This document shows positions 8,601 through 31,273 of a DNA stretch of 32,000 nt, one piece after another (the first letter of the stretch is position 1; the number at the start of each line of letters is the position of its first letter). Made by a program: the position numbers and the translations under genes. The stretch lies in NCBI RefSeq assembly GCF_017876815.1, contig NZ_JAGIOS010000002.1, positions 1,110,001 through 1,142,000 on the forward strand, given 5' to 3'. The notes beneath the pieces are model-generated. The model searched no databases, had not been told where the DNA came from, and was given only the letters and a program-made list of their open reading frames with translations. This DNA comes from Sinorhizobium meliloti (GTDB lineage Bacteria; Pseudomonadota; Alphaproteobacteria; Rhizobiales; Rhizobiaceae).

Positions 8601-8625
8601 GGAACAAACAGGCGGACCGCCGGTT
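8601..8625 (+). promoter_or_regulatory. EcfG/RpoE2-type general-stress promoter candidate (GGAAC-N16-GGTT)
   Basis: GGAAC at 8601-8605, 16-nt spacer, GGTT at 8622-8625, 36 nt upstream of ATG 8661. Confidence 0.4.
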
Positions 8626-8660
8626 CATCCGTCGGCCCGTCACCACGAGAGGAGAAACCG

Positions 8661-9143
8661 ATGGCGCGTGGATCACTCATTGCTGTAAGCGGATTATTCG
8701 CCGGTCTTGCCGCGGTGGCGGCGCTGACCGTCTCGGCCGAGCGCCGGAACGAAAGTCCCTGGCGGCCGATCAACGCGACGAGCCACTGGATACACGGCCG
8801 TCGAGCCGGTTCGCAGTCGCGTCTCGACCTCGCGCACACCGGCACCGGCTTCGTGACGCATATGCTTGCCTCACTCTGGTGGGCGCTGCCGTTCTCCGCC
8901 ATGGTCGGACGAAGCGCGCGGCCTTCGCCGCAGCGGGTGATTGCCGCCGCCTTCGGCACCACCGTGCTGGCAGCCCTTGTCGACTATGGGCTGGTACCGA
9001 AGCGTCTTACGCCCGGCTGGGAACTCGCCCTGCCGAAGTCCGACCTGGCGGCGGCCTATATGGCCATGGGTATCGGCCTGGCGTTGGGCGCATCCCTGCA
9101 TGGCGCAGCGGCGGCGCGCGGCCAGGAACATCCTCCGGTCTGA
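8661..9143 (+). CDS. hypothetical membrane protein (about 4 TM segments)
   Basis: 160-aa ORF with SD GAGGAG 7 nt upstream of ATG 8661. Hydrophobic segments include LIAVSGLFAGLAAVAALTV, FVTHMLASLWWALPFSAMV, VIAAAFGTTVLAALVDYGLV and AAAYMAMGIGLALGASL. I recognise no family. Confidence 0.6.
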   Translation: MARGSLIAVSGLFAGLAAVAALTVSAERRNESPWRPINATSHWIHGRRAGSQSRLDLAHTGTGFVTHMLASLWWALPFSAMVGRSARPSPQRVIAAAFGTTVLAALVDYGLVPKRLTPGWELALPKSDLAAAYMAMGIGLALGASLHGAAAARGQEHPPV

Positions 9144-9149
9144 CCGGTT
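9125..9149 (+). promoter_or_regulatory. EcfG/RpoE2-type general-stress promoter candidate (GGAAC-N16-GGTT)
   Basis: GGAAC at 9125-9129, 16-nt spacer, GGTT at 9146-9149. It overlaps the 3' end of the preceding ORF and lies 64 nt upstream of ATG 9213. Confidence 0.4.
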
Positions 9150-9212
9150 AGACCGGGTGCCAGCAAGACGTCGGTATCGAAACGCGACGACACATGCGTG
9201 AGGAGATCCCCA

Positions 9213-9392
9213 ATGAGCAGCCGACCACCGCCAATCCCTCCGGACAATCGCAGCGACAAGGGAACAGGAGAGCCTGGAACCGTGTTGGCCGAGTCGAAGA
9301 AGCCGGACGTGGCCGAGAACCCCGAGAAGAAGGGCCAGCAGGGCAACACGAAGGTCAATACGACCCATCAAGGCTACCAACAGGACAGATGA
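9213..9392 (+). CDS. small hydrophilic protein (59 aa), probably stress-induced
   Basis: ATG 9213 is preceded by GAGGAG at 7-nt spacing. The product MSSRPPPIPPDNRSDKGTGEPG..KKGQQGNTKVNTTHQGYQQDR is low-complexity and charged. The ..QGN.K.NTT.QGYQQDR tail resembles small conserved hypothetical proteins of Rhizobiales as I recall them. Confidence 0.55.
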   Translation: MSSRPPPIPPDNRSDKGTGEPGTVLAESKKPDVAENPEKKGQQGNTKVNTTHQGYQQDR

Positions 9393-9402
9393 GGCAGAGC
9401 GC

Positions 9403-9600
9403 ATGTCCACATCCAAGAAGACGCCAGCAAGCATCCGCCAGGGCGGTCCGGGAGCCTCGCACGAAAATGCAAAGGAGCCGCTGGAAATACCAAAGCCGCC
9501 AGCCGACTCCGAGCGCCGCACGCGCAGCAAGGTTTCCGGCGGCGGAGGCGAGCCTGACCGCCACCACAGTCACGACGCGAGGCGCAAGGGCGGGCATTGA
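9403..9600 (+). CDS. small hydrophilic basic protein (65 aa), hypothetical
   Basis: ATG 9403 lies 10 nt after the previous stop, with GAGG upstream. The product is disordered-looking (..KVSGGGGEPDRHHSHDARRKGGH). Coding status is uncertain. Confidence 0.4.
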   Translation: MSTSKKTPASIRQGGPGASHENAKEPLEIPKPPADSERRTRSKVSGGGGEPDRHHSHDARRKGGH

Positions 9601-9619
9601 CCATCGCCACTGCCTCGGA

Positions 9620-9644
9620 TGAACAATTCCTCATCGCAGGCGTT
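9620..9644 (+). promoter_or_regulatory. weaker EcfG-like motif (TGAAC-N16-CGTT)
   Basis: TGAAC at 9620-9624 (one mismatch to GGAAC), 16-nt spacer, CGTT at 9641-9644, 34 nt upstream of ATG 9678. Confidence 0.25.
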
Positions 9645-9677
9645 CTGCTTGACCCGCAACGGGTGGAGGAGTTCGCC

Positions 9678-9782
9678 ATGCGACGCGGTTTGCGCCATCA
9701 CCCAATGGTCGACCTGATCGTGTTCATCGCCGCCGTCGGGCTGGTTTCGGCGATCATGGTCGTGTCTCTCTTCTTCGGCTGA
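9678..9782 (+). CDS. 34-aa single-TM peptide, hypothetical
   Basis: ATG 9678 is preceded by GGAGGAG at 7-nt spacing. The product is MRRGLRHHPMVDLIVFIAAVGLVSAIMVVSLFFG: a basic N-terminus followed by one hydrophobic helix. Confidence 0.4.
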   Translation: MRRGLRHHPMVDLIVFIAAVGLVSAIMVVSLFFG

Positions 9783-9784
9783 GC

Positions 9785-9970
9785 ATGTCGCGACGGCAGA
9801 AGTCTGCTGCCGCTGCATGACGTCGCTGCGGAGGAGGCACTTTCCGCAGCGACGGCGGCGCCCCCGGGGAGGGGAGGAGGGAGGGACGCCGCCCGGGTCG
9901 ATTCCGGCATAGCGGAGGGGACAAGAGCCGACCCGTTCTTCTGGACAAGCCGCTTTGGGTAAAGCGACGG
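9785..9970 (-). ncRNA. candidate trans-acting sRNA with CCUCC-type anti-SD motifs (alpha-r14/'cuckoo'/CcsR-like); boundaries approximate
   Basis: Minus-strand promoter-like motif: GGAAC (10000-9996)-N16-TGTT (9979-9976). Downstream on the minus strand there are four elements. (1) A 5' hairpin CGCTTT-ACCC-AAAGCG (9966-9951). (2) CCCCUCC (9920-9914). (3) A CCCGGG/CCCGGG stem (9897-9892 with 9868-9863) whose loop contains CCCUCCCUCCUCCCCUC. (4) A perfect 12-bp hairpin (9854-9821) with CCUCCUCC (9837-9830) at the loop/stem junction. No U-tract terminator was found on this strand. Confidence 0.25.
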
Positions 9971-10068
9971 CGCCTAACACTCTGCGCCGCGGATGGTTCC
10001 GAGAAATACATGCCAAACGGCAATTCTGTTTCTGCCCCGGTCCGCTGGGGAAGAATGCCGGCCGCCTG

Positions 10069-10109
10069 CAGCGCCGCGCGTCTTGTCAGACGCGCAAAGC
10101 GCTGTTTTT
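10069..10109 (+). terminator. compound intrinsic terminator, plus strand
   Basis: Outer stem CAGCGC (10069-10074) / GCGCTG (10099-10104). Inner stem GCGCGTC (10076-10082) / GACGCGC (10089-10095), loop TTGTCA. Followed by TTTTT (10105-10109). It lies about 290 nt after the last plus-strand ORF. Confidence 0.55.
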
Positions 10110-10124
10110 GCCCTTTAACCGGCC

Positions 10125-10149
10125 ACGATTAAAGGAAACATGCAGTAGG
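10125..10149 (+). repeat. copy B of the 25-nt direct repeat ACGATTAAAGGAAACATGCAGTAGG
   Basis: 23/25 identical to 4302-4326. Here the TTAAAGG part pairs with an upstream CCTTTAA (10112-10118). It lies between the plus-strand terminator and the stop (10164-10166) of the convergent molybdopterin-subunit gene. Confidence 0.65.
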
Positions 10150-10163
10150 CGGCCGGCACGCGC

Positions 10164-12377
10164 TCAGGCGTTGAGCGATTTCGCGAAGGGCATGACGCGG
10201 ATCCGCTTGCCGAGCGCCTTGAAGGCGGCATTGGCAACCGCAGGGCCGATCGGCGGAACGCCGGGCTCGCCGATCCCCGAAGGCGGATTGGCGGAGGCGA
10301 CGATATGAACCTCCACCTTCGGCATCGCATCGATCCTGAGTGGTGTGTACATGTCGAAGTTCCCCTGATCGACCTTGCCGTCGGTCAGCGTGATTTCCTC
10401 ACCCAGGATGGCGCTCAGCCCGAAGCCGATACCGCCCTCGACCTGAGCGCGGACCTGATCCGGATTGATCGCGAGACCACAATCGACGGCAGCCACGACG
10501 CGCTCGACCTTGATACCGTCGCCATCGACGGAGACCTCGGCGATCTGTGCCACAACCGAACCGAAGCTCTCGGCGACGGCGACGCCCCGGAAGCGGCCTT
10601 TGGGCAACGGCTTCTGCCATTCGGCCTTCTCCGCTGCGAGCTTGAGAACGGTCGCATGGCGCGAGTCCGGCTTCAGCATCGACAGTCGGAACTCGAGCGG
10701 ATCCCGTCCCGCAGCCTCGGCAACCTCGTCCAGAAAAGCTTCGGCTGCGAATGCGGTGTGTGTCGAGCCGACGGAGCGCCACCAGAGAACCGGGACGCGG
10801 ACGTCGGTGGTCGTGAGGCCGACGCTCTGATTCGCAATGGCATAGGGGAGGTTGTTGGCGCCCTCCACCGAGGTCGGGTCGACCCCGTTCTGGACCATGC
10901 CGTCCCAGGCCGTTTTCGCCATGATCGACTGGCCGACGATGTGATCGCTCCAGGCGACGAGCTTCCCGGCTTCGTCGATCCCGGCCTTCAGCCGATGCAC
11001 ATAGGCCGGACGATACCGGCCCGCGCGGGTGTCTTCCTCCCGCGTCCACTGCACCTTGACCGGTGCACGGAAACCGAGGGCCTTCGCCACATGGACAGCC
11101 TCTACCACGACATCGCCGTCGAATACCGCACGCCGCCCGAAGCTGCCGCCGGTCTTCATGACGTTGAGCCGGACCTTTTCGACCGGCACTCCGGCAATCT
11201 CGCTGGCGAGGTTCTGGTACACGTCGGGGAGCTGGTGCCCGCCCCAGATCTCGATCGTGCCGTCGTCGTTCCTGCGCGCGACCGCGTTCAGGGGTTCCAG
11301 GGCAGCATGCGCGAGATAGGGGAACTCGAACGTCGCTTCGATGACTTTTGCCGCCGATGTGAATGCGGCGTCGGTATCCCCGTCCTTGCGCGCGAATGCG
11401 GCCGGCGTCTTGCCGGCAAGATCGCGATAGGTGGACATCAGCTCGGGCGTTCCGCGCTTTTCGGCGCCCGTCTCGTCCCACTCAACCGTGACTGCCTCGC
11501 GGCCTTTGATCGCGGCCCACATATGCTCGCCGACCACGGCGATGCCGCGGGGCGTTTCCACCACGTCGACCACGCCCTTGATCGCACGGGCGGCGGAAGC
11601 ATCGAAGGACTTCGCCTTGGCGCCGAAGAGAGGCGGGTGGATCATCACCGCTGTCAGCATTCCGGGGAGCTTGACGTCGATGGTGTATTGCTCGGTTCCG
11701 TTTGCCTTGCGGGCACTGTCGAAGCGCTTCAGTTCGGCATTGCCGATAAGTTTCCAGTCTCCCGGCTCCTTGAGCTTCACGTCGGCCGGCACCGGCATGG
11801 TGGCCGCCTTGGCTGCAAACGCGCCGAAACCGCCGCTCTTGCCGGATGGATGCGAAAGAACGCCGTTCTCGACCGCGATCTCGGCCGCGTCGACGCCCCA
11901 TTCCGCTGCAGCGGCAGCAACCAGCATCGCCCGGGCGGCGGCACCTGCCCTGCGATAGCGCTCCCAGGAGGTGGACATGGAGGTCGACCCTCCCGTGCCC
12001 TGCATCGTGCCGCCGAAGGCGATATTGCCGTAAGCCTTGATATTGCCGGCGGCTCCGATGACGTCGATCGCGGACCAATCCGCGTCGAGTTCCTCCGCCA
12101 CCAGCGTGGCAATGCCGTTATAAGAGCCCTGGCCCATCTCGAACTGAGACGAGAGAATGGTGACCTTTCCGTCCCCGCCGATGGTCAGGTATGGGGAAAA
12201 TGCGTGTGAGCCGCTCTCCGTTGCCGCCTCGCCCGCCAGTGCCGGCGACGCGGACAGGATCCGGTACCCGATTGCGACGCCGGTGCCGGCCGCAAGCGCA
12301 CCGAGCAGGAATTGCCGCCGCGACGCTTCGGTCCGGGCGACGGGAAGGGTGATCGATTGCATCAGTTTCGGTATCAT
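10164..12377 (-). CDS. molybdopterin-binding large subunit of an IorB/aldehyde-oxidase-type oxidoreductase, Tat-exported
   Basis: ATG 12377 ([33 protein letters not shown]..) gives a twin-arginine signal. GGAGG lies upstream and only 1 nt separates it from the small-subunit stop. The long body resembles the xanthine dehydrogenase family. The track ORF's extra 74 codons overlap the upstream gene. Confidence 0.9.
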
Positions 12378-12378
12378 G

Positions 12379-12837
12379 TCAGGCCTCCAGACGCTTCGCG
12401 GCTTCGTGAATGCCCGCGCGGATACGATGATAGGTGGCGCACCGACAGAGATTGCCGGACATGGCGGCGTCGATGTCCGCGTCGGTTGGTTTGGGATTGT
12501 TGGCCAGAAGGTCCGTTGCGGACATGATCTGGCCGGACTGACAGTAGCCGCATTGCGGAACGTCGAGATCGGCCCAGACGGCCTGTACCGTCTCGGCAAC
12601 CTTGCCCTTCAGGCCCTCGACCGTCGTCACCTCGGCGCCTTCGATGTCGCCGATGAAGGTTTGACAGGACCGAGTGGGTGAACCGTCGACATAAACCGTG
12701 CAGGCGCCGCATTGCGCCATGCCGCAGCCGAACTTCGTGCCCGTCAACCCGACAAGGTCGCGGATCGCCCAGAGAAGCGGCATATCCGCCTCGGCCTCTA
12801 TCTTGTGTTCGACGCCGTTGATCTTAACAGTCACCAT
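12379..12837 (-). CDS. (2Fe-2S)-binding small subunit of the same oxidoreductase
   Basis: ATG 12837 ([11 protein letters not shown]..) is preceded by GAGGAG. Cysteine motifs are [20 protein letters not shown] and CRCATY. Confidence 0.92.
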
Positions 12838-28523: not shown

Positions 28524-31273
28524 GTGCGCTCGGGCATGAGCTCCGGTCGACAGAGGCCGCCCGGCCCGCGAAAAGGCTCGACAGCCGGATCACCGATCTG
28601 CCGATCTCTGCCCGCGTGGCCGCGCTCACAGCGGCCGGCCTGATCAGCCTTGTCCTTTCATCCCTGTTTCTCACGCAGGCGCTTTATCGCAGCGCCGAGC
28701 GCATGGCCGAAACAAGGGAGCTTTTCGACCGGGCAGCATCGGCAGCATCGGCCCATGTGGCATTCGGCGACCTCAGATACTGGTTGACCGATCTCTCCGT
28801 CAGTCTGCTGATGAACTCCCAGCGCAACGCCGATGAGGCCCGCGAACGGTTGCAGGAGCAATTGGCGGGCCTTGCAAAGCACGCGCCGGAGGCGGTGGAG
28901 GCAATTCGTACGGAAGTCGACGCCTATGTCGAAACGGCTCTGCAGGCAGCCGACAGCTACACCCAGGACAACCGCATCGTCGGTAACGCCTTGCTGGCAA
29001 AGGCGCGCACCCACAGCGGCAAGGTCGATGCGGATCTCAACAGGCTCGTGGAACAGGTAAAGGCCGAGGCGGAAGCGGCCCGCAACGAGGTTGTCGTGCA
29101 AACCGAGAAGACAGCCACGACCGCGGCCATCCTGGTGGGCGGAGTGGTGTTGATCGGTTCGCTGCTCACGCTTCTCGTCCTGCGCTCGATCGTCGGCCCG
29201 CTGCGGCGCCTCAATCGCGTCATCGGCGACCTGACGGAGGGACGTTACGACGTCGATATCCCCGAAGAGGGCGGCGATGAACTGGGAGCAATGGCAAGGA
29301 CGCTTTCGCTTTTCCGGGAAAGCGCGATCGAAAAGAAAAAACTCGAAGACGAAGCGGAGCGGCAGCGCCGGACGATCGCAGCCGCGCTCGAGGTGATCTC
29401 GGATGGCTTCGTCCTCTATGATTCCGAGGACAGGATCCTGGTCGCCAACAGCAAATATTGCGAAATCTTCCCGAGCCACAAGCCGAATACGCTTCGCGGC
29501 AGGAGCTTCCGCGAAATCGTGGAGCAGAACCTGGAAATGGGTCAGGTGGATCTCGAAGGCAAGTCGCCGCAAGAGTGGGTCGACGAGCGCGTAAGGCTGC
29601 ATCGGGACCCTGCCGGCCTCGTCGACGAGAAGCGGTTCGGCGACAAGTGGGTCCGCATAAGCAAACGCAAGATTCCGGACGGAGGAACGGTCGCCGTCTA
29701 CACCGACATCACCGAGCTCAAGCAGCGGCAGGTCGAACTCGAGCGCGCGAAGAGCCACGCAGAGTCGGCAAACGAGGCCAAGAGCCGGTTCCTCGCCTCC
29801 ATGAGCCACGAGTTGCGCACGCCCCTCAACGCGATCATCGGCTACAGCGAGATGCTGATAGAGGAGGCACGCGATCATGAAGATGAGGAGCTTGTCCCGG
29901 ACCTCGACAAGATAGCGTCCGCGGGTCGCCATCTTCTTTCGCTCATCAACGACATCCTCGACCTGTCGAAGATCGAGGCGAACAAGATGGAGGTTTTCCT
30001 CGAGACCTTCAGCGTTGCCGACTTGCTCCGTGACGTAGCAGCGACAGTCGCGCCGTTGATGGCCCGGAACGGAAACGAGTTCACGCAGGATTTCGAGGCC
30101 GATCTCGGCGAGATGCATTCCGACCAGACCAAGCTGCGCCAGAACCTTTTCAACTTGCTCAGCAATGCGGCCAAGTTCACGAATGGCGGGCGGGTGACCC
30201 TGAGGGTCCGGCGGGAGCAAAGAGCGGACCGCGACTGGCTTGTGTTCCAGGTCACCGACACCGGCATAGGCATGTCACCGGAGCAGCAGGAACGGCTTTT
30301 CAATGCCTTCACCCAGGCCGATGCCTCCACCACCCGAAACTACGGCGGCACGGGCCTGGGCTTAAGCATCACGCGCAGCTTCTGCCGCATGATAGGCGGC
30401 GTCGTCACCGTCGAAAGCGAAGTCGGCAAGGGTTCCGTGTTCACCATGGAGGTGCCGGCACAGTGCGAGAGAGAGGCCGACGGATCGCCGGCCGAACCCG
30501 TGCCGCAAGTTGGGTCGGGCCGCACCGCACTCATCATCGACGATGAGCCGGCTGCCCGCGGCCTTATCGCAAAGGCGCTCGCAGAAGCGGGCCTCGCTTC
30601 GATCGAGGCGTCGAACGGACAGGAAGGATTGGCTGCCGCACGCAAGCACCGGCCAGACGCGATCATTCTCGACATCATCATGCCGCATCAGGACGGCTGG
30701 TCGGTCCTGCGCGCCCTGAAGAACGATCCCGAATTATGCACGATCCCGGTGATCTTGGCGACGATCCTGGCGGATCGCGAACTGGGTCTTTCGCTCGGCG
30801 CGGTCGAGTATCTGACGAAGCCGATCGATACCGATAAGCTGGTCCGGACGATCGAGACATTCGGGGGCGGCAAGCACGACGTTCTCGTCGTCGACGACGA
30901 CCAGGCCTCCCGCGAGTTTCTCCGGCGCATTTTGGTCAAGAGAAAGTGGACAGTACACGAAGCGGGCGACGGCATCCGAGGACTGGAAATGATGAAGCGG
31001 ATTCTGCCGCGTCTCGTCCTGCTCGACCTTCTGATGCCGGAAATGGATGGATTCCAGACGCTCAGCGAAATGCAGAGGATTCCGGAGCTGCAGAACATTC
31101 CGGTGGTGGTGGTCACGTCGAAGGACCTCTCCGCAAGCGAGCTGAAATGGTTGCGCGACCGGGCGGTCGCTGTCGTGAACAAGGGCGCAAACAGCCGCTC
31201 CCAGCTGGTCGCGGCACTCGAACGTCAGATCGGATCGGGCGCTTCGGTCGGCAAAGCCCTCGCGGACGGCTGA
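28520..31273 (+). CDS. hybrid sensor histidine kinase (2 TM, periplasmic helical domain, HAMP, PAS, HisKA, HATPase_c, REC, REC)
   Basis: ATGA overlap with the upstream gene. H-box is [18 protein letters not shown] (His codon 29807-29809), N-box is [11 protein letters not shown]-boxes are DTGIGM / GGTGLGLSI. Two receiver domains are present (..[13 protein letters not shown].. and ..LVLLDLLMP..). Confidence 0.93.

Follow-up and report, generated by a model that had tools for sequence, protein, structure and literature searches.

Results

A Promoter and Four-Hairpin RNA in the SMb20341-SMb20342 Intergenic Region

The DNA analyzed here (the window) is a stretch of 32,000 nucleotides (nt) from Sinorhizobium meliloti (contig NZ_JAGIOS010000002.1, positions 1,110,001 to 1,142,000). 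A candidate small RNA (sRNA) gene is located on its minus strand, within the 380-nt gap that separates the convergent genes SMb20341 and SMb20342. Window positions 9350-10200 are 100% identical to pSymB of the S. meliloti strains BL225C and SM11 and 98.3% identical to pSymB positions 345486-346341 of strain Sm1021; in the base-by-base map, Sm1021 345966 and 346126 correspond to window positions 9821 and 9981, respectively. Positions 10000-9821 of the minus strand probably constitute an independent sRNA gene of S. meliloti pSymB that belongs to the family of the known sRNA SmelB127 and encodes a trans-acting RNA with anti-Shine-Dalgarno (anti-SD) loops under the control of the sigma factor RpoE2. 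The features of the candidate are listed below.

9821-10006, minus strand: conserved block made up of a promoter and a four-hairpin RNA (cross-species BLAST and alignments)
9975-10000, minus strand: EcfG/RpoE2-type promoter, GGAACCA (10000-9994), 13-nt spacer, GTGTTA (9980-9975) (format match and conservation)
9968, minus strand: predicted transcription start site (TSS), the G of GUCGCU and first base of hairpin 1 (homology to the mapped TSS of SmelB127)
9949-9968, minus strand: hairpin 1, the 5' stem-loop GUCGCUUU-ACCC-AAAGCGGC (minimum free energy (MFE) fold and consensus helix 1)
9936-9948, minus strand: purine-rich, single-stranded linker UUGUCCAGAAGAA (unpaired in the MFE fold and the consensus)
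9894-9935, minus strand: hairpin 2, stem CGGGUCGG/(U)CGACCCG, with CCCCUCC (9920-9914) in its loop region (MFE fold and consensus)
9854-9893, minus strand: hairpin 3, a 12-bp G+C stem with the 16-nt loop CCCUCCUCCCCUCCCC (9881-9866) (MFE fold and consensus)
9822-9853, minus strand: hairpin 4, GUCGCUGCGGA/UCCGCAGCGAC with the loop AAGUGCCUCC (MFE fold and alignments)

The RNA from 9968 to 9816 (153 nt) folds as four consecutive hairpins with a free energy of -73.1 kcal/mol (z = -4.8). A first-pass annotation of the window had placed a 5' hairpin at 9966-9951, and the core CGCTTTACCCAAAGCG of hairpin 1 is found exactly there; the whole stem, GTCGCTTT/AAAGCGGC, extends from 9968 to 9949. The same annotation had reported a single-stranded CCCCUCC at 9920-9914. 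The position is correct, but the motif is not simply single-stranded: it forms part of the loop of a conserved hairpin (9935-9894), which had been missed. For the third hairpin, the two CCCGGG segments (9897-9892 and 9868-9863) and the 23 nt between them are present, but a stem closed by CCCGGG/CCCGGG is out of register. According to the MFE fold and the compensatory changes, the stem is GGCGGCGUCCCU (9893-9882)/GGGGGCGCCGCC (9865-9854), and it encloses the 16-nt loop CCCUCCUCCCCUCCCC. This loop holds the one exact CCUCCUCCC of the RNA, which had been correctly located at 9880-9872 (DNA CCTCCTCCC). A single exact CCTCCTCCC is at the level of chance, since 41 of 100 shuffled sequences contain at least one copy. 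The 12-bp palindrome at 9854-9821, with CCTCCTCC at 9837-9830, is also as described; hairpin 4 carries CCUCCUCC, the last 3 nt of which fall within the stem in the MFE fold. Hairpin 1 has no CCUCCUCCC-like motif, and hairpin 2 has CCCCUCC.

The RpoE2-Type Promoter

The promoter GGAACCA-N13-GTGTTA is, in other notation, the GGAAC-N16-TGTT motif of the first-pass annotation (GGAAC at 10000-9996, TGTT at 9979-9976, with 16 nt between them), and it is present at 10000-9976 of the minus strand. Its format is identical to that of S. meliloti RpoE2 promoters mapped by rapid amplification of cDNA ends (RACE) or RNA-seq, such as that of SMa5002 (GGAACCA-N13-GTGTTT), and the verified RpoE2 promoters in this format comparison include examples with a TGTT -10 element. 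All 17 homologues carry a GGAAC-type box (variant in four of them: GGAAG, GCAAC, GGGAC), followed after 15-17 nt by GTT, and hairpin 1 begins at a fixed spacing of 7-8 nt past the -10 element. In a scan for sigma70 promoters, no relevant site turned up in the window or at the orthologous loci. Transcription of the candidate would start at about G9968, because this base corresponds to the mapped TSS of SmelB127 (1325677), the G of cAGTCGCT.

The pattern GGAAC-N17-GTT occurs at three sites in the 32-kb window, compared with 0.63 expected, and all three lie within 8601-10000. These sites (8601-8625, plus strand; 9125-9149, plus strand; 9976-10000, minus strand) are clustered in 1.4 kb and precede SMb20339, SMb20340 (at its mapped RpoE2 promoter) and the candidate sRNA, respectively. 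Together they outline a small general-stress island of tiny open reading frames (ORFs) without a Pfam match.

Conservation across Sinorhizobium

Window positions 10010-9785 were used as the query for BLAST searches against plasmids and chromids, and the element was found only in Sinorhizobium. The identities are 86% for S. medicae, 80% for Sinorhizobium sp. K101/M103/C101, 78% for LMB1 and 72-74% for S. americanum. The matches in S. medicae, K101, LMB1 and S. americanum are confined to window positions ~10006-9825; those of the first three span query positions 4/5 to 186/190. At least six Sinorhizobium species share the block, whereas the adjoining intergenic DNA is conserved on neither side. 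The flanks are syntenic in S. medicae, K101 and LMB1, with the xanthine dehydrogenase gene upstream and the SMb20341 operon convergent downstream. Despite these syntenic flanking genes, the block is the sole part of the SMb20341-SMb20342 intergenic region that can be aligned between Sinorhizobium species. The promoter, the stems and the C-rich loops are intact in S. meliloti, S. kummerowiae, S. medicae and Ensifer sp. USDA 6670. In S. americanum and S. fredii NXT3, the module is located between a gamma-glutamyltranspeptidase gene and a convergent gene for a major facilitator superfamily (MFS) transporter.

In alignments A1 and A2, conservation begins at TTTCTCGGAAC and ends with hairpin 4, or with hairpin 3 in the other subfamilies. 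Because conservation runs from just upstream of GGAAC to the last hairpin, the block is read as the footprint of a self-contained promoter-plus-RNA gene and not of an untranslated region (UTR). Hairpin 4 is restricted to the "copy 1" lineage (S. meliloti, USDA 6670, S. medicae, K101 and LMB1) and is absent from copy 2 (see below), from the americanum/fredii type and from SmelB127. Contigs were also scanned with the pattern TCGGAA-N18-GTT-N5-CCGTCGCTT, which is too strict to reach the SmelB127-type copies; three true relatives and nine chance matches were obtained, and the S. meliloti representative was not returned.

SmelB127 and Other Paralogues

The SmelB126/SmelB127 locus was first recognized by eye as a third relative. 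A covariance model (R1) was built from 13 copy-1, copy-2 and americanum-type sequences, i.e., the candidate and 12 homologues, with SmelB127 excluded. R1 matches SmelB127 at Sm1021 pSymB 1325675-1325789 (L031:326-440) with 56.1 bits (E = 6e-8) over all of its 117 positions (1-117/117); the candidate itself scores 109 bits. The model also matches a copy on pSymA of BL225C (52 bits) and one on an accessory plasmid of S. medicae (45.5 bits), and it finds the second pSymB copy (Sm1021 ~30445-30560; see below) as well as copies in S. americanum and S. fredii. It does not match SmelB161 (an alpha-r14 member; none at E ≤ 10), SmelB008, SMb_sRNA_381 or SmelB003.

SmelB127 has been described as a 127-nt trans-encoded sRNA with three hairpins, mapped 5' ends at 1325676, 1325677 and 1325700, and 3' ends at 1325792/3 (Schluter 2010). 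It is identical with SMb_sRNA_433, which has a TSS at 1325677, GGAACTA-N13-GAGTTC upstream and the promoter class RpoE2 (Schluter 2013), and the intergenic probe set over SmelB127 rises by a log2 of 2.47 upon rpoE2 overexpression. The TSS is the G of GUCGCU and the first base of hairpin 1. The 3' end is located 4-5 nt beyond hairpin 3, which is the 3'-terminal structure of this RNA, and no U-tract is present. SmelB127 is transcribed from the C-rich strand and adjoins a convergent small ORF. The second mapped 5' end, at +24 (Sm1021 pSymB 1325700), lies directly after hairpin 1; it suggests processing to a form without the 5' hairpin, which recalls the processing of GsrN.

SmelB127 (pSymB 1325677-1325793) and the candidate are homologous over the full 117-position core. 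They share an RpoE2-type promoter at equal distance from a GUCGCU...AGCGRC first hairpin, the three-hairpin layout, the pyrimidine-rich loops of hairpins 2 and 3, and the absence of a U-tract after the last hairpin. The two RNAs differ in that they have ~60% sequence identity and occupy different loci, and the candidate, unlike SmelB127, has an extra fourth hairpin with GCCUCCUCC. The loops of the candidate are richer in CCUCC, whereas SmelB127 has CCCUUCC and UCGUUCCCCUUCAUC. The measured ends and the measured rpoE2 dependence are those of SmelB127, not of the candidate. On these comparisons, the candidate is best described as a previously undescribed sister copy of SmelB127.

A second pSymB copy (copy 2) was uncovered by using the S. 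americanum copy as the query. It is located on the plus strand of Sm1021 pSymB at 30410-30560 (within L025:1408-1570, ~30408-30570). The promoter of copy 2, GGAACCA-N13-ACGTTA, is nearer to consensus, and the RNA has hairpins 1-3 and lacks hairpin 4. The known sRNA SmelB003 is found ~100 nt upstream of copy 2, and a dienelactone-hydrolase gene follows 214 nt downstream; copy 2 might function as an sRNA, as a 5' leader or in both roles. No entry for copy 2 was found in the literature, including the rows listed from the supplements of Schluter 2010 and 2013. Close to copy 2 and SmelB003 in Sm1021 (L025:1117-1160), there is a palindromic repeat (GATCACG..TGTTTTTAGGTCG.CCCGACCTGAAAACAT..CGTGATC), and S. 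medicae has a similar palindrome in the spacer that separates SMb20341 from the sRNA (L003 ~1535-1578); the repeat looks like a REP/RIME-like intergenic repeat.

The SmelB127-type copies on BL225C pSymA (L033:738-851) and on S. medicae pSU277_3 (L034:732-845) have the variant -35 boxes GCAAC and GGGAC. SmelB127 is present in only ~10 of the S. meliloti pSymB records searched, so that copy number and location vary between strains. The family appears to be specific to Sinorhizobium, multi-copy and megaplasmid-borne, with SmelB127/SMb_sRNA_433 as its one experimentally characterized member.

Covariation and Strand of the RNA

Covariation statistics were obtained from an alignment of 17 sequences, in which 94.1% of the cells form standard pairs. 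Compensatory changes are found at six pairs, compared with 3.3 ± 1.1 in shuffled alignments (10 of 500 shuffles reach six), and the covariation score of 0.229 (0.182 in the shuffles) is reached by none of 500; registers slid along the alignment score 0.094 or less. An independent run of RNAalifold returned the same three helices. Pairing in consensus helix 1 amounts to 95.6% over the 17 sequences, with variation among U-A, U-G and C-G pairs. Helix 2 is 92% paired with changes on both sides at two pairs, and helix 3 has compensatory changes at four pairs, for example, GGCGGCG/CGCCGCC to GGCAGCG/CGCTGCC. The sequence of the linker at 9936-9948 varies between subfamilies.

The loops of hairpins 2 and 3 vary in sequence yet remain composed only of pyrimidines and rich in CCUCC. 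Examples are CCCCUCC, CCUCCC and CCCUUCC for hairpin 2, and CCCUCCUCCCCUCCCC, CCUCCUCCCUCCUCC and UUUCUCCUCCCUC for hairpin 3; CCCUCC, CCUCCC or CCUUCC is kept in the hairpin 2 loop of every copy. This pattern is what selection for anti-SD-like single strands would produce.

The alignment contains 50 G.U cells at 15 pairs, compared with six A.C cells at four pairs, and canonical pairs amount to 94.1% on the minus strand versus 84.5% for the mirrored structure on the opposite strand. This G.U asymmetry, the orientation of the conserved promoter and the measured orientation of SmelB127 together place the RNA on the minus strand of the window. The proposal of the first-pass annotation that the minus strand holds an RNA gene with a general-stress promoter and C-rich, anti-SD-like loops is thus upheld by the conserved unit, the G.U evidence and the SmelB127 paralogue.

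Two other explanations of the block were rejected. Indels interrupt the ORFs within it (89, 70 and 148 amino acids on the minus strand; 31 amino acids on the plus strand), and the start codons of these ORFs lack conservation; the orthologues differ by indels whose lengths are not divisible by three, and the ATG at 9910 is likewise not kept. A REP/RIME-like repeat was dismissed on the basis of two to four copies per genome with a sigma-factor promoter on each.

Flanking Genes and Possible Convergent Transcription

The gene content of the window was taken from annotation transferred from CP050561 and Schluter 2013. The features on either side of the candidate are listed below.

8661-9143, plus strand: SMb20339 (annotation transfer, CP050561 and Schluter 2013)
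9125-9149, plus strand: mapped RpoE2 promoter of the SMb20340 operon (Schluter 2013 Table S19 and motif match; Sm1021 345261-345286, TSS 345295)
9213-9392, plus strand: SMb20340 (annotation transfer, CP050561 and Schluter 2013)
9403-9600, plus strand: unnamed 65-amino-acid ORF (annotated in CP050561)
9597-9782, plus strand: SMb20341, small membrane-protein ORF convergent to the candidate RNA (annotation CP050561)
9786-9820, strand not assigned: non-conserved G+C hairpin between hairpin 4 and the SMb20341 stop codon (unaligned outside the S. meliloti clade)
10068-10108, plus strand: hairpin resembling an intrinsic terminator, followed by UUUUU (-27.6 kcal/mol)
10164-12837, minus strand: SMb20342 and SMb20343, genes of the xanthine-dehydrogenase family (annotation transfer)

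The real start of SMb20341 is likely the ATG at 9678, which is preceded by GGAGGAG, and the gene is rpoE2-dependent with a log2 of 4.39 (Schluter 2013 Table S18). The 65-amino-acid ORF at 9403-9600, between SMb20340 and SMb20341, encodes a hydrophilic protein that is 92-98% identical in S. medicae, K101 and LMB1, and it has no SMb number among the Schluter 2013 table rows listed. Because of the CP050561 annotation and the protein identity in these relatives, it is probably a real small stress protein. The hairpin at 9786-9820 has a U-tract on neither strand. Compared with Sm1021, its loop differs by a 9-nt indel and that of the hairpin at 10068-10108 by a 4-nt indel; both stems are preserved, and the strain differences in these flanking hairpins are confined to the loops.

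The hairpin at 10068-10108 has an A-run before it and a T-run after it, which favors the plus strand. Because no terminator was found by a scan between the SMb20341 stop codon and the candidate, plus-strand transcripts of SMb20340-41 could plausibly cross the element up to this hairpin and its U5. The strong rpoE2 induction of the operon adds to the case for the alternative offered in the first-pass annotation, in which the plus strand is the functional one: a structured 3' UTR of SMb20340-41 that ends at 10068-10108 and whose GGAGG repeats act as Shine-Dalgarno mimics, or as a sponge for CCUCC-type sRNAs. As the primary function of the block, this is improbable; plausible in the proposal is the read-through. 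The module also occurs without the convergent gene, namely, in copy 2 and in the type found in S. americanum and S. fredii; in S. medicae and K101, SMb20341 and the element are 195-460 nt apart, and the DNA between them is unconserved. On the plus strand, the conserved GGAAC..GTT motif serves no purpose, and the minus-strand G.U pairs would be A.C mismatches (50 vs 6). The paralogue SmelB127 is transcribed from the C-rich strand, and a plus-strand intergenic probe set induced by rpoE2 has not been reported.

The same arrangement of genes bears on a second alternative, in which the candidate acts mainly in cis. A terminator-less minus-strand RNA would read into, or pair with, the convergent SMb20340-41 mRNA and act by antisense pairing or RNase III, or by transcriptional interference, as a self-limiting loop in the general stress regulon. 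Consistent with this, the minus strand has no U-tract, the SMb20341 stop codon is 40 nt from hairpin 4 in S. meliloti, and two RpoE2-type promoters face each other. The best local duplex between a loop and a ribosome-binding site is that with the GGAGGAG site of SMb20341 (in a screen that is not significant), and SmelB127 likewise abuts a convergent small ORF. However, the element lies at a variable distance from SMb20341 (S. meliloti, 40 nt; S. medicae, ~195 nt; K101, ~460 nt), and the other paralogues have different neighbors. Conservation ends exactly at the last hairpin, and SmelB127 has a discrete 3' end just after its own. Action mainly in cis is considered unlikely, although it deserves more weight than the plus-strand UTR.

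Relation to alpha-r14/cuckoo, GsrN and Other sRNAs

The first-pass annotation had assigned the candidate to the alpha-r14/cuckoo family and had proposed a search with the Rfam covariance models. No match was found in the whole window at the gathering thresholds. In a permissive search, full-length but weak alignments were obtained on the minus strand, as follows.

ar7 (RF02342), minus strand: 24.2 bits, gathering threshold 60
ar14 (RF02344), minus strand: 22.5 bits, gathering threshold 58.8
6C, minus strand: 20.5 bits, gathering threshold 47
CcsR1 (RF02791), minus strand: 14.5 bits, gathering threshold 65.3

SmelB161, a genuine cuckoo member on pSymB, served as the positive control and scored 108.5 bits with ar14 using the same tool. 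Membership of alpha-r7 was rejected on its score. Membership of alpha-r14/cuckoo/CcsR was rejected on the sub-threshold scores, the failure of R1 to match SmelB161 and the lack of a U-tract terminator, and the assignment in the first-pass annotation does not hold. The genomic context is also not of the CcsR type. The upstream co-directional gene encodes a xanthine-dehydrogenase-family subunit, the candidate has its own EcfG-type promoter, no DUF1127 gene was found nearby, and the neighboring small ORFs have no Pfam family match.

On paper, the design is nevertheless shared. The alpha-r14/cuckoo sRNAs (NfeR1 = SmelC397, SmelB161) and CcsR1-4 of Rhodobacter, like the candidate, consist of two to four tandem hairpins with CCUCCUCCC-like anti-SD loops; all are multi-copy paralogues scattered over replicons and linked to stress. 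The candidate differs from them in that homology is not detectable, it has a single exact CCUCCUCCC and it lacks a Rho-independent terminator. Its promoter is of the EcfG/RpoE2 class, whereas NfeR1 has a conserved sigma70 motif and CcsR depends on RpoHI/HII, and, unlike CcsR, it is not downstream of a DUF1127 gene. That the candidate is a divergent but true member of alpha-r14/cuckoo (NfeR1, CcsR) could be argued from the full-length sub-threshold alignments to ar7, ar14 and CcsR1, the exact CCUCCUCCC and the multi-hairpin architecture; with scores so far below the thresholds and the differences just given, such membership is extremely improbable.

GsrN of Caulobacter, which depends on sigmaT/EcfG (Tien et al. 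2018, PMC5869019), resembles the candidate in its EcfG-type promoter and C-rich loop. The exposed cytosine-rich loop of GsrN pairs with G-rich tracts in mRNAs (PMC5869019). GsrN is the RNA arm of the general stress response (GSR), activates katG and is processed to a 5' isoform. The putative GsrN-like sRNAs of Rhizobiaceae adjoin the GSR locus, whereas the candidate is on a megaplasmid and not near rpoE2/phyR. The likeness to GsrN concerns only the promoter class and the C-rich loop.

SmelB008, SmelC416 and SmelC601, described as "cuckoo-like but unrelated" (Reinkensmeier & Giegerich 2015, PMC4615179), have three hairpins and C-rich loops like the candidate. SmelB008 and SmelC601 have predicted RpoE2 promoters, and the intergenic region of SmelC416 is rpoE2-induced. 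SmelB008 (Sm1021 pSymB 65071-65147; L030:172-248) shares the first hairpin, GUCGCU...AGCGAC, which stands directly at its start, and its three loops are C-rich, but, unlike the members of the family, it has no match to R1. Its likeness could stem from distant homology, or the starts of RpoE2 transcripts could have converged.

Expression Evidence and Counterevidence

Several observations weigh against the assignment of the candidate as an RpoE2-driven sRNA of the SmelB127 family. The 2010 small-RNA-seq catalogue does not include the candidate (it lists no SmelB entry at 3459xx-3461xx), and no SMb20341-SMb20342 intergenic probe set is among those induced by rpoE2, in contrast to that of SmelB127. 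Transcript evidence for the candidate copy was not found in the catalogues and tables searched. Its -10 element is TGTT rather than CGTT, and the K101 and LMB1 orthologues read GGAAG where the candidate has GGAAC. The covariation is modest, and the figures lean toward structure because the alignment was fitted to the model. In a crude screen with RNAduplex, the three loops were paired with the local translation-initiation regions in the window; the result is not significant, the best duplex being -20 kcal/mol (SMb20341) against a background of -12.4 ± 3.7 kcal/mol (~2 standard deviations). The target mechanism is purely an analogy. Finally, scans of the window and the orthologous loci returned no canonical terminator on the minus strand, which bears out the caveat in the first-pass annotation. 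Hairpin 4 is followed by GUCAUGC without a U-tract, and the orthologues are alike. The lack of a U-tract is a family trait and not an argument against a transcript, because SmelB127, with its mapped 3' end, has none either.

Among the Schluter 2013 rows listed (S2, S11), there is no TSS or sRNA at Sm1021 pSymB 3459xx-3461xx, and a full-text search for SMb20339-42 and SmelB127 returned no discussion of the locus or the family.

The absence from the catalogue and from the rpoE2-induced intergenic regions, together with the weaker TGTT element, could mean that the candidate is a silent or decaying SmelB127-type paralogue with little or no expression. There is a precedent in alpha-r14, of which one copy is readily detected and five of the six S. 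meliloti copies are not reliably seen on Northern blots (PMC7143759). Against decay, the promoter, stems and C-rich loops are intact in S. meliloti, S. kummerowiae, S. medicae and USDA 6670 although the flanks have diverged too far to be aligned, compensatory changes are present in the stems, and verified RpoE2 promoters do use TGTT. A silent copy is therefore also regarded as unlikely.

Discussion

The reading that is probably correct is that of an RpoE2-driven, trans-acting sRNA with anti-SD loops, and its proposed mode of action is as follows. General stress (heat, salt or starvation) would free the EcfG-type sigma factor RpoE2, which, judging from the promoter match and the paralogue, would transcribe the gene from GGAACCA-N13-GTGTTA with a start at about G9968. 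The resulting RNA of ~120-150 nt would consist of the 5' hairpin followed by hairpins 2, 3 and 4, a structure supported by covariation. The loops of hairpins 2, 3 and 4 would expose CCCCUCC, CCCUCCUCCCCUCCCC and GCCUCC, respectively; they would mimic the 3' end of 16S rRNA (CCUCCU) and pair with ribosome-binding sites of the GGAGG type or with G-rich leaders. By analogy with NfeR1/alpha-r14, CcsR and GsrN, for which such pairing has been shown, the pairing would change the translation or the stability of the target mRNAs. A stable hairpin at the end of the RNA, not a U-tract terminator, would probably set the 3' end, which would follow hairpin 3 and/or hairpin 4. The candidate may also pair with the 3' UTR of convergent SMb20341. 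Because the SMb20340-41 mRNA may run across the element to 10068-10108, the candidate would then be perfectly antisense to that 3' UTR.

C-rich-loop sRNAs, RpoE2-dependent sRNAs and SmelB127 itself are already known. The new findings are the locus and the family relationship, i.e., at least 3-5 paralogues on Sinorhizobium megaplasmids, neither of which is in the literature searched or in Rfam. A broader proposal, which is possible but tentative, is that these paralogues (SmelB127, the ~30.4-kb pSymB copy, the candidate, and the variants on pSymA and accessory plasmids) jointly provide the general stress response with a redundant post-transcriptional arm, consisting of at least 3-5 megaplasmid-borne anti-SD sRNAs driven by RpoE2/EcfG. 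Under this proposal, the candidate would have gained a fourth anti-SD hairpin and would take part in a sense/antisense feedback loop with the 3' UTR of the RpoE2-dependent small-protein operon.

RpoE2 controls more than 200 S. meliloti genes, and the role of its sRNA targets has been stated to be unknown (PMC6180224). If the copies are redundant, deletions of single copies may show no phenotype. Comparative target prediction can draw on the 17 homologues. For genome annotation, the candidate represents an RNA gene that is missed by Rfam-based pipelines. The family would be a rhizobial counterpart of Caulobacter GsrN, in which the cuckoo/alpha-r14 design was apparently reached by convergence. 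The element is not of a surprising kind, but it gives a useful family definition for rhizobial RNA biology.

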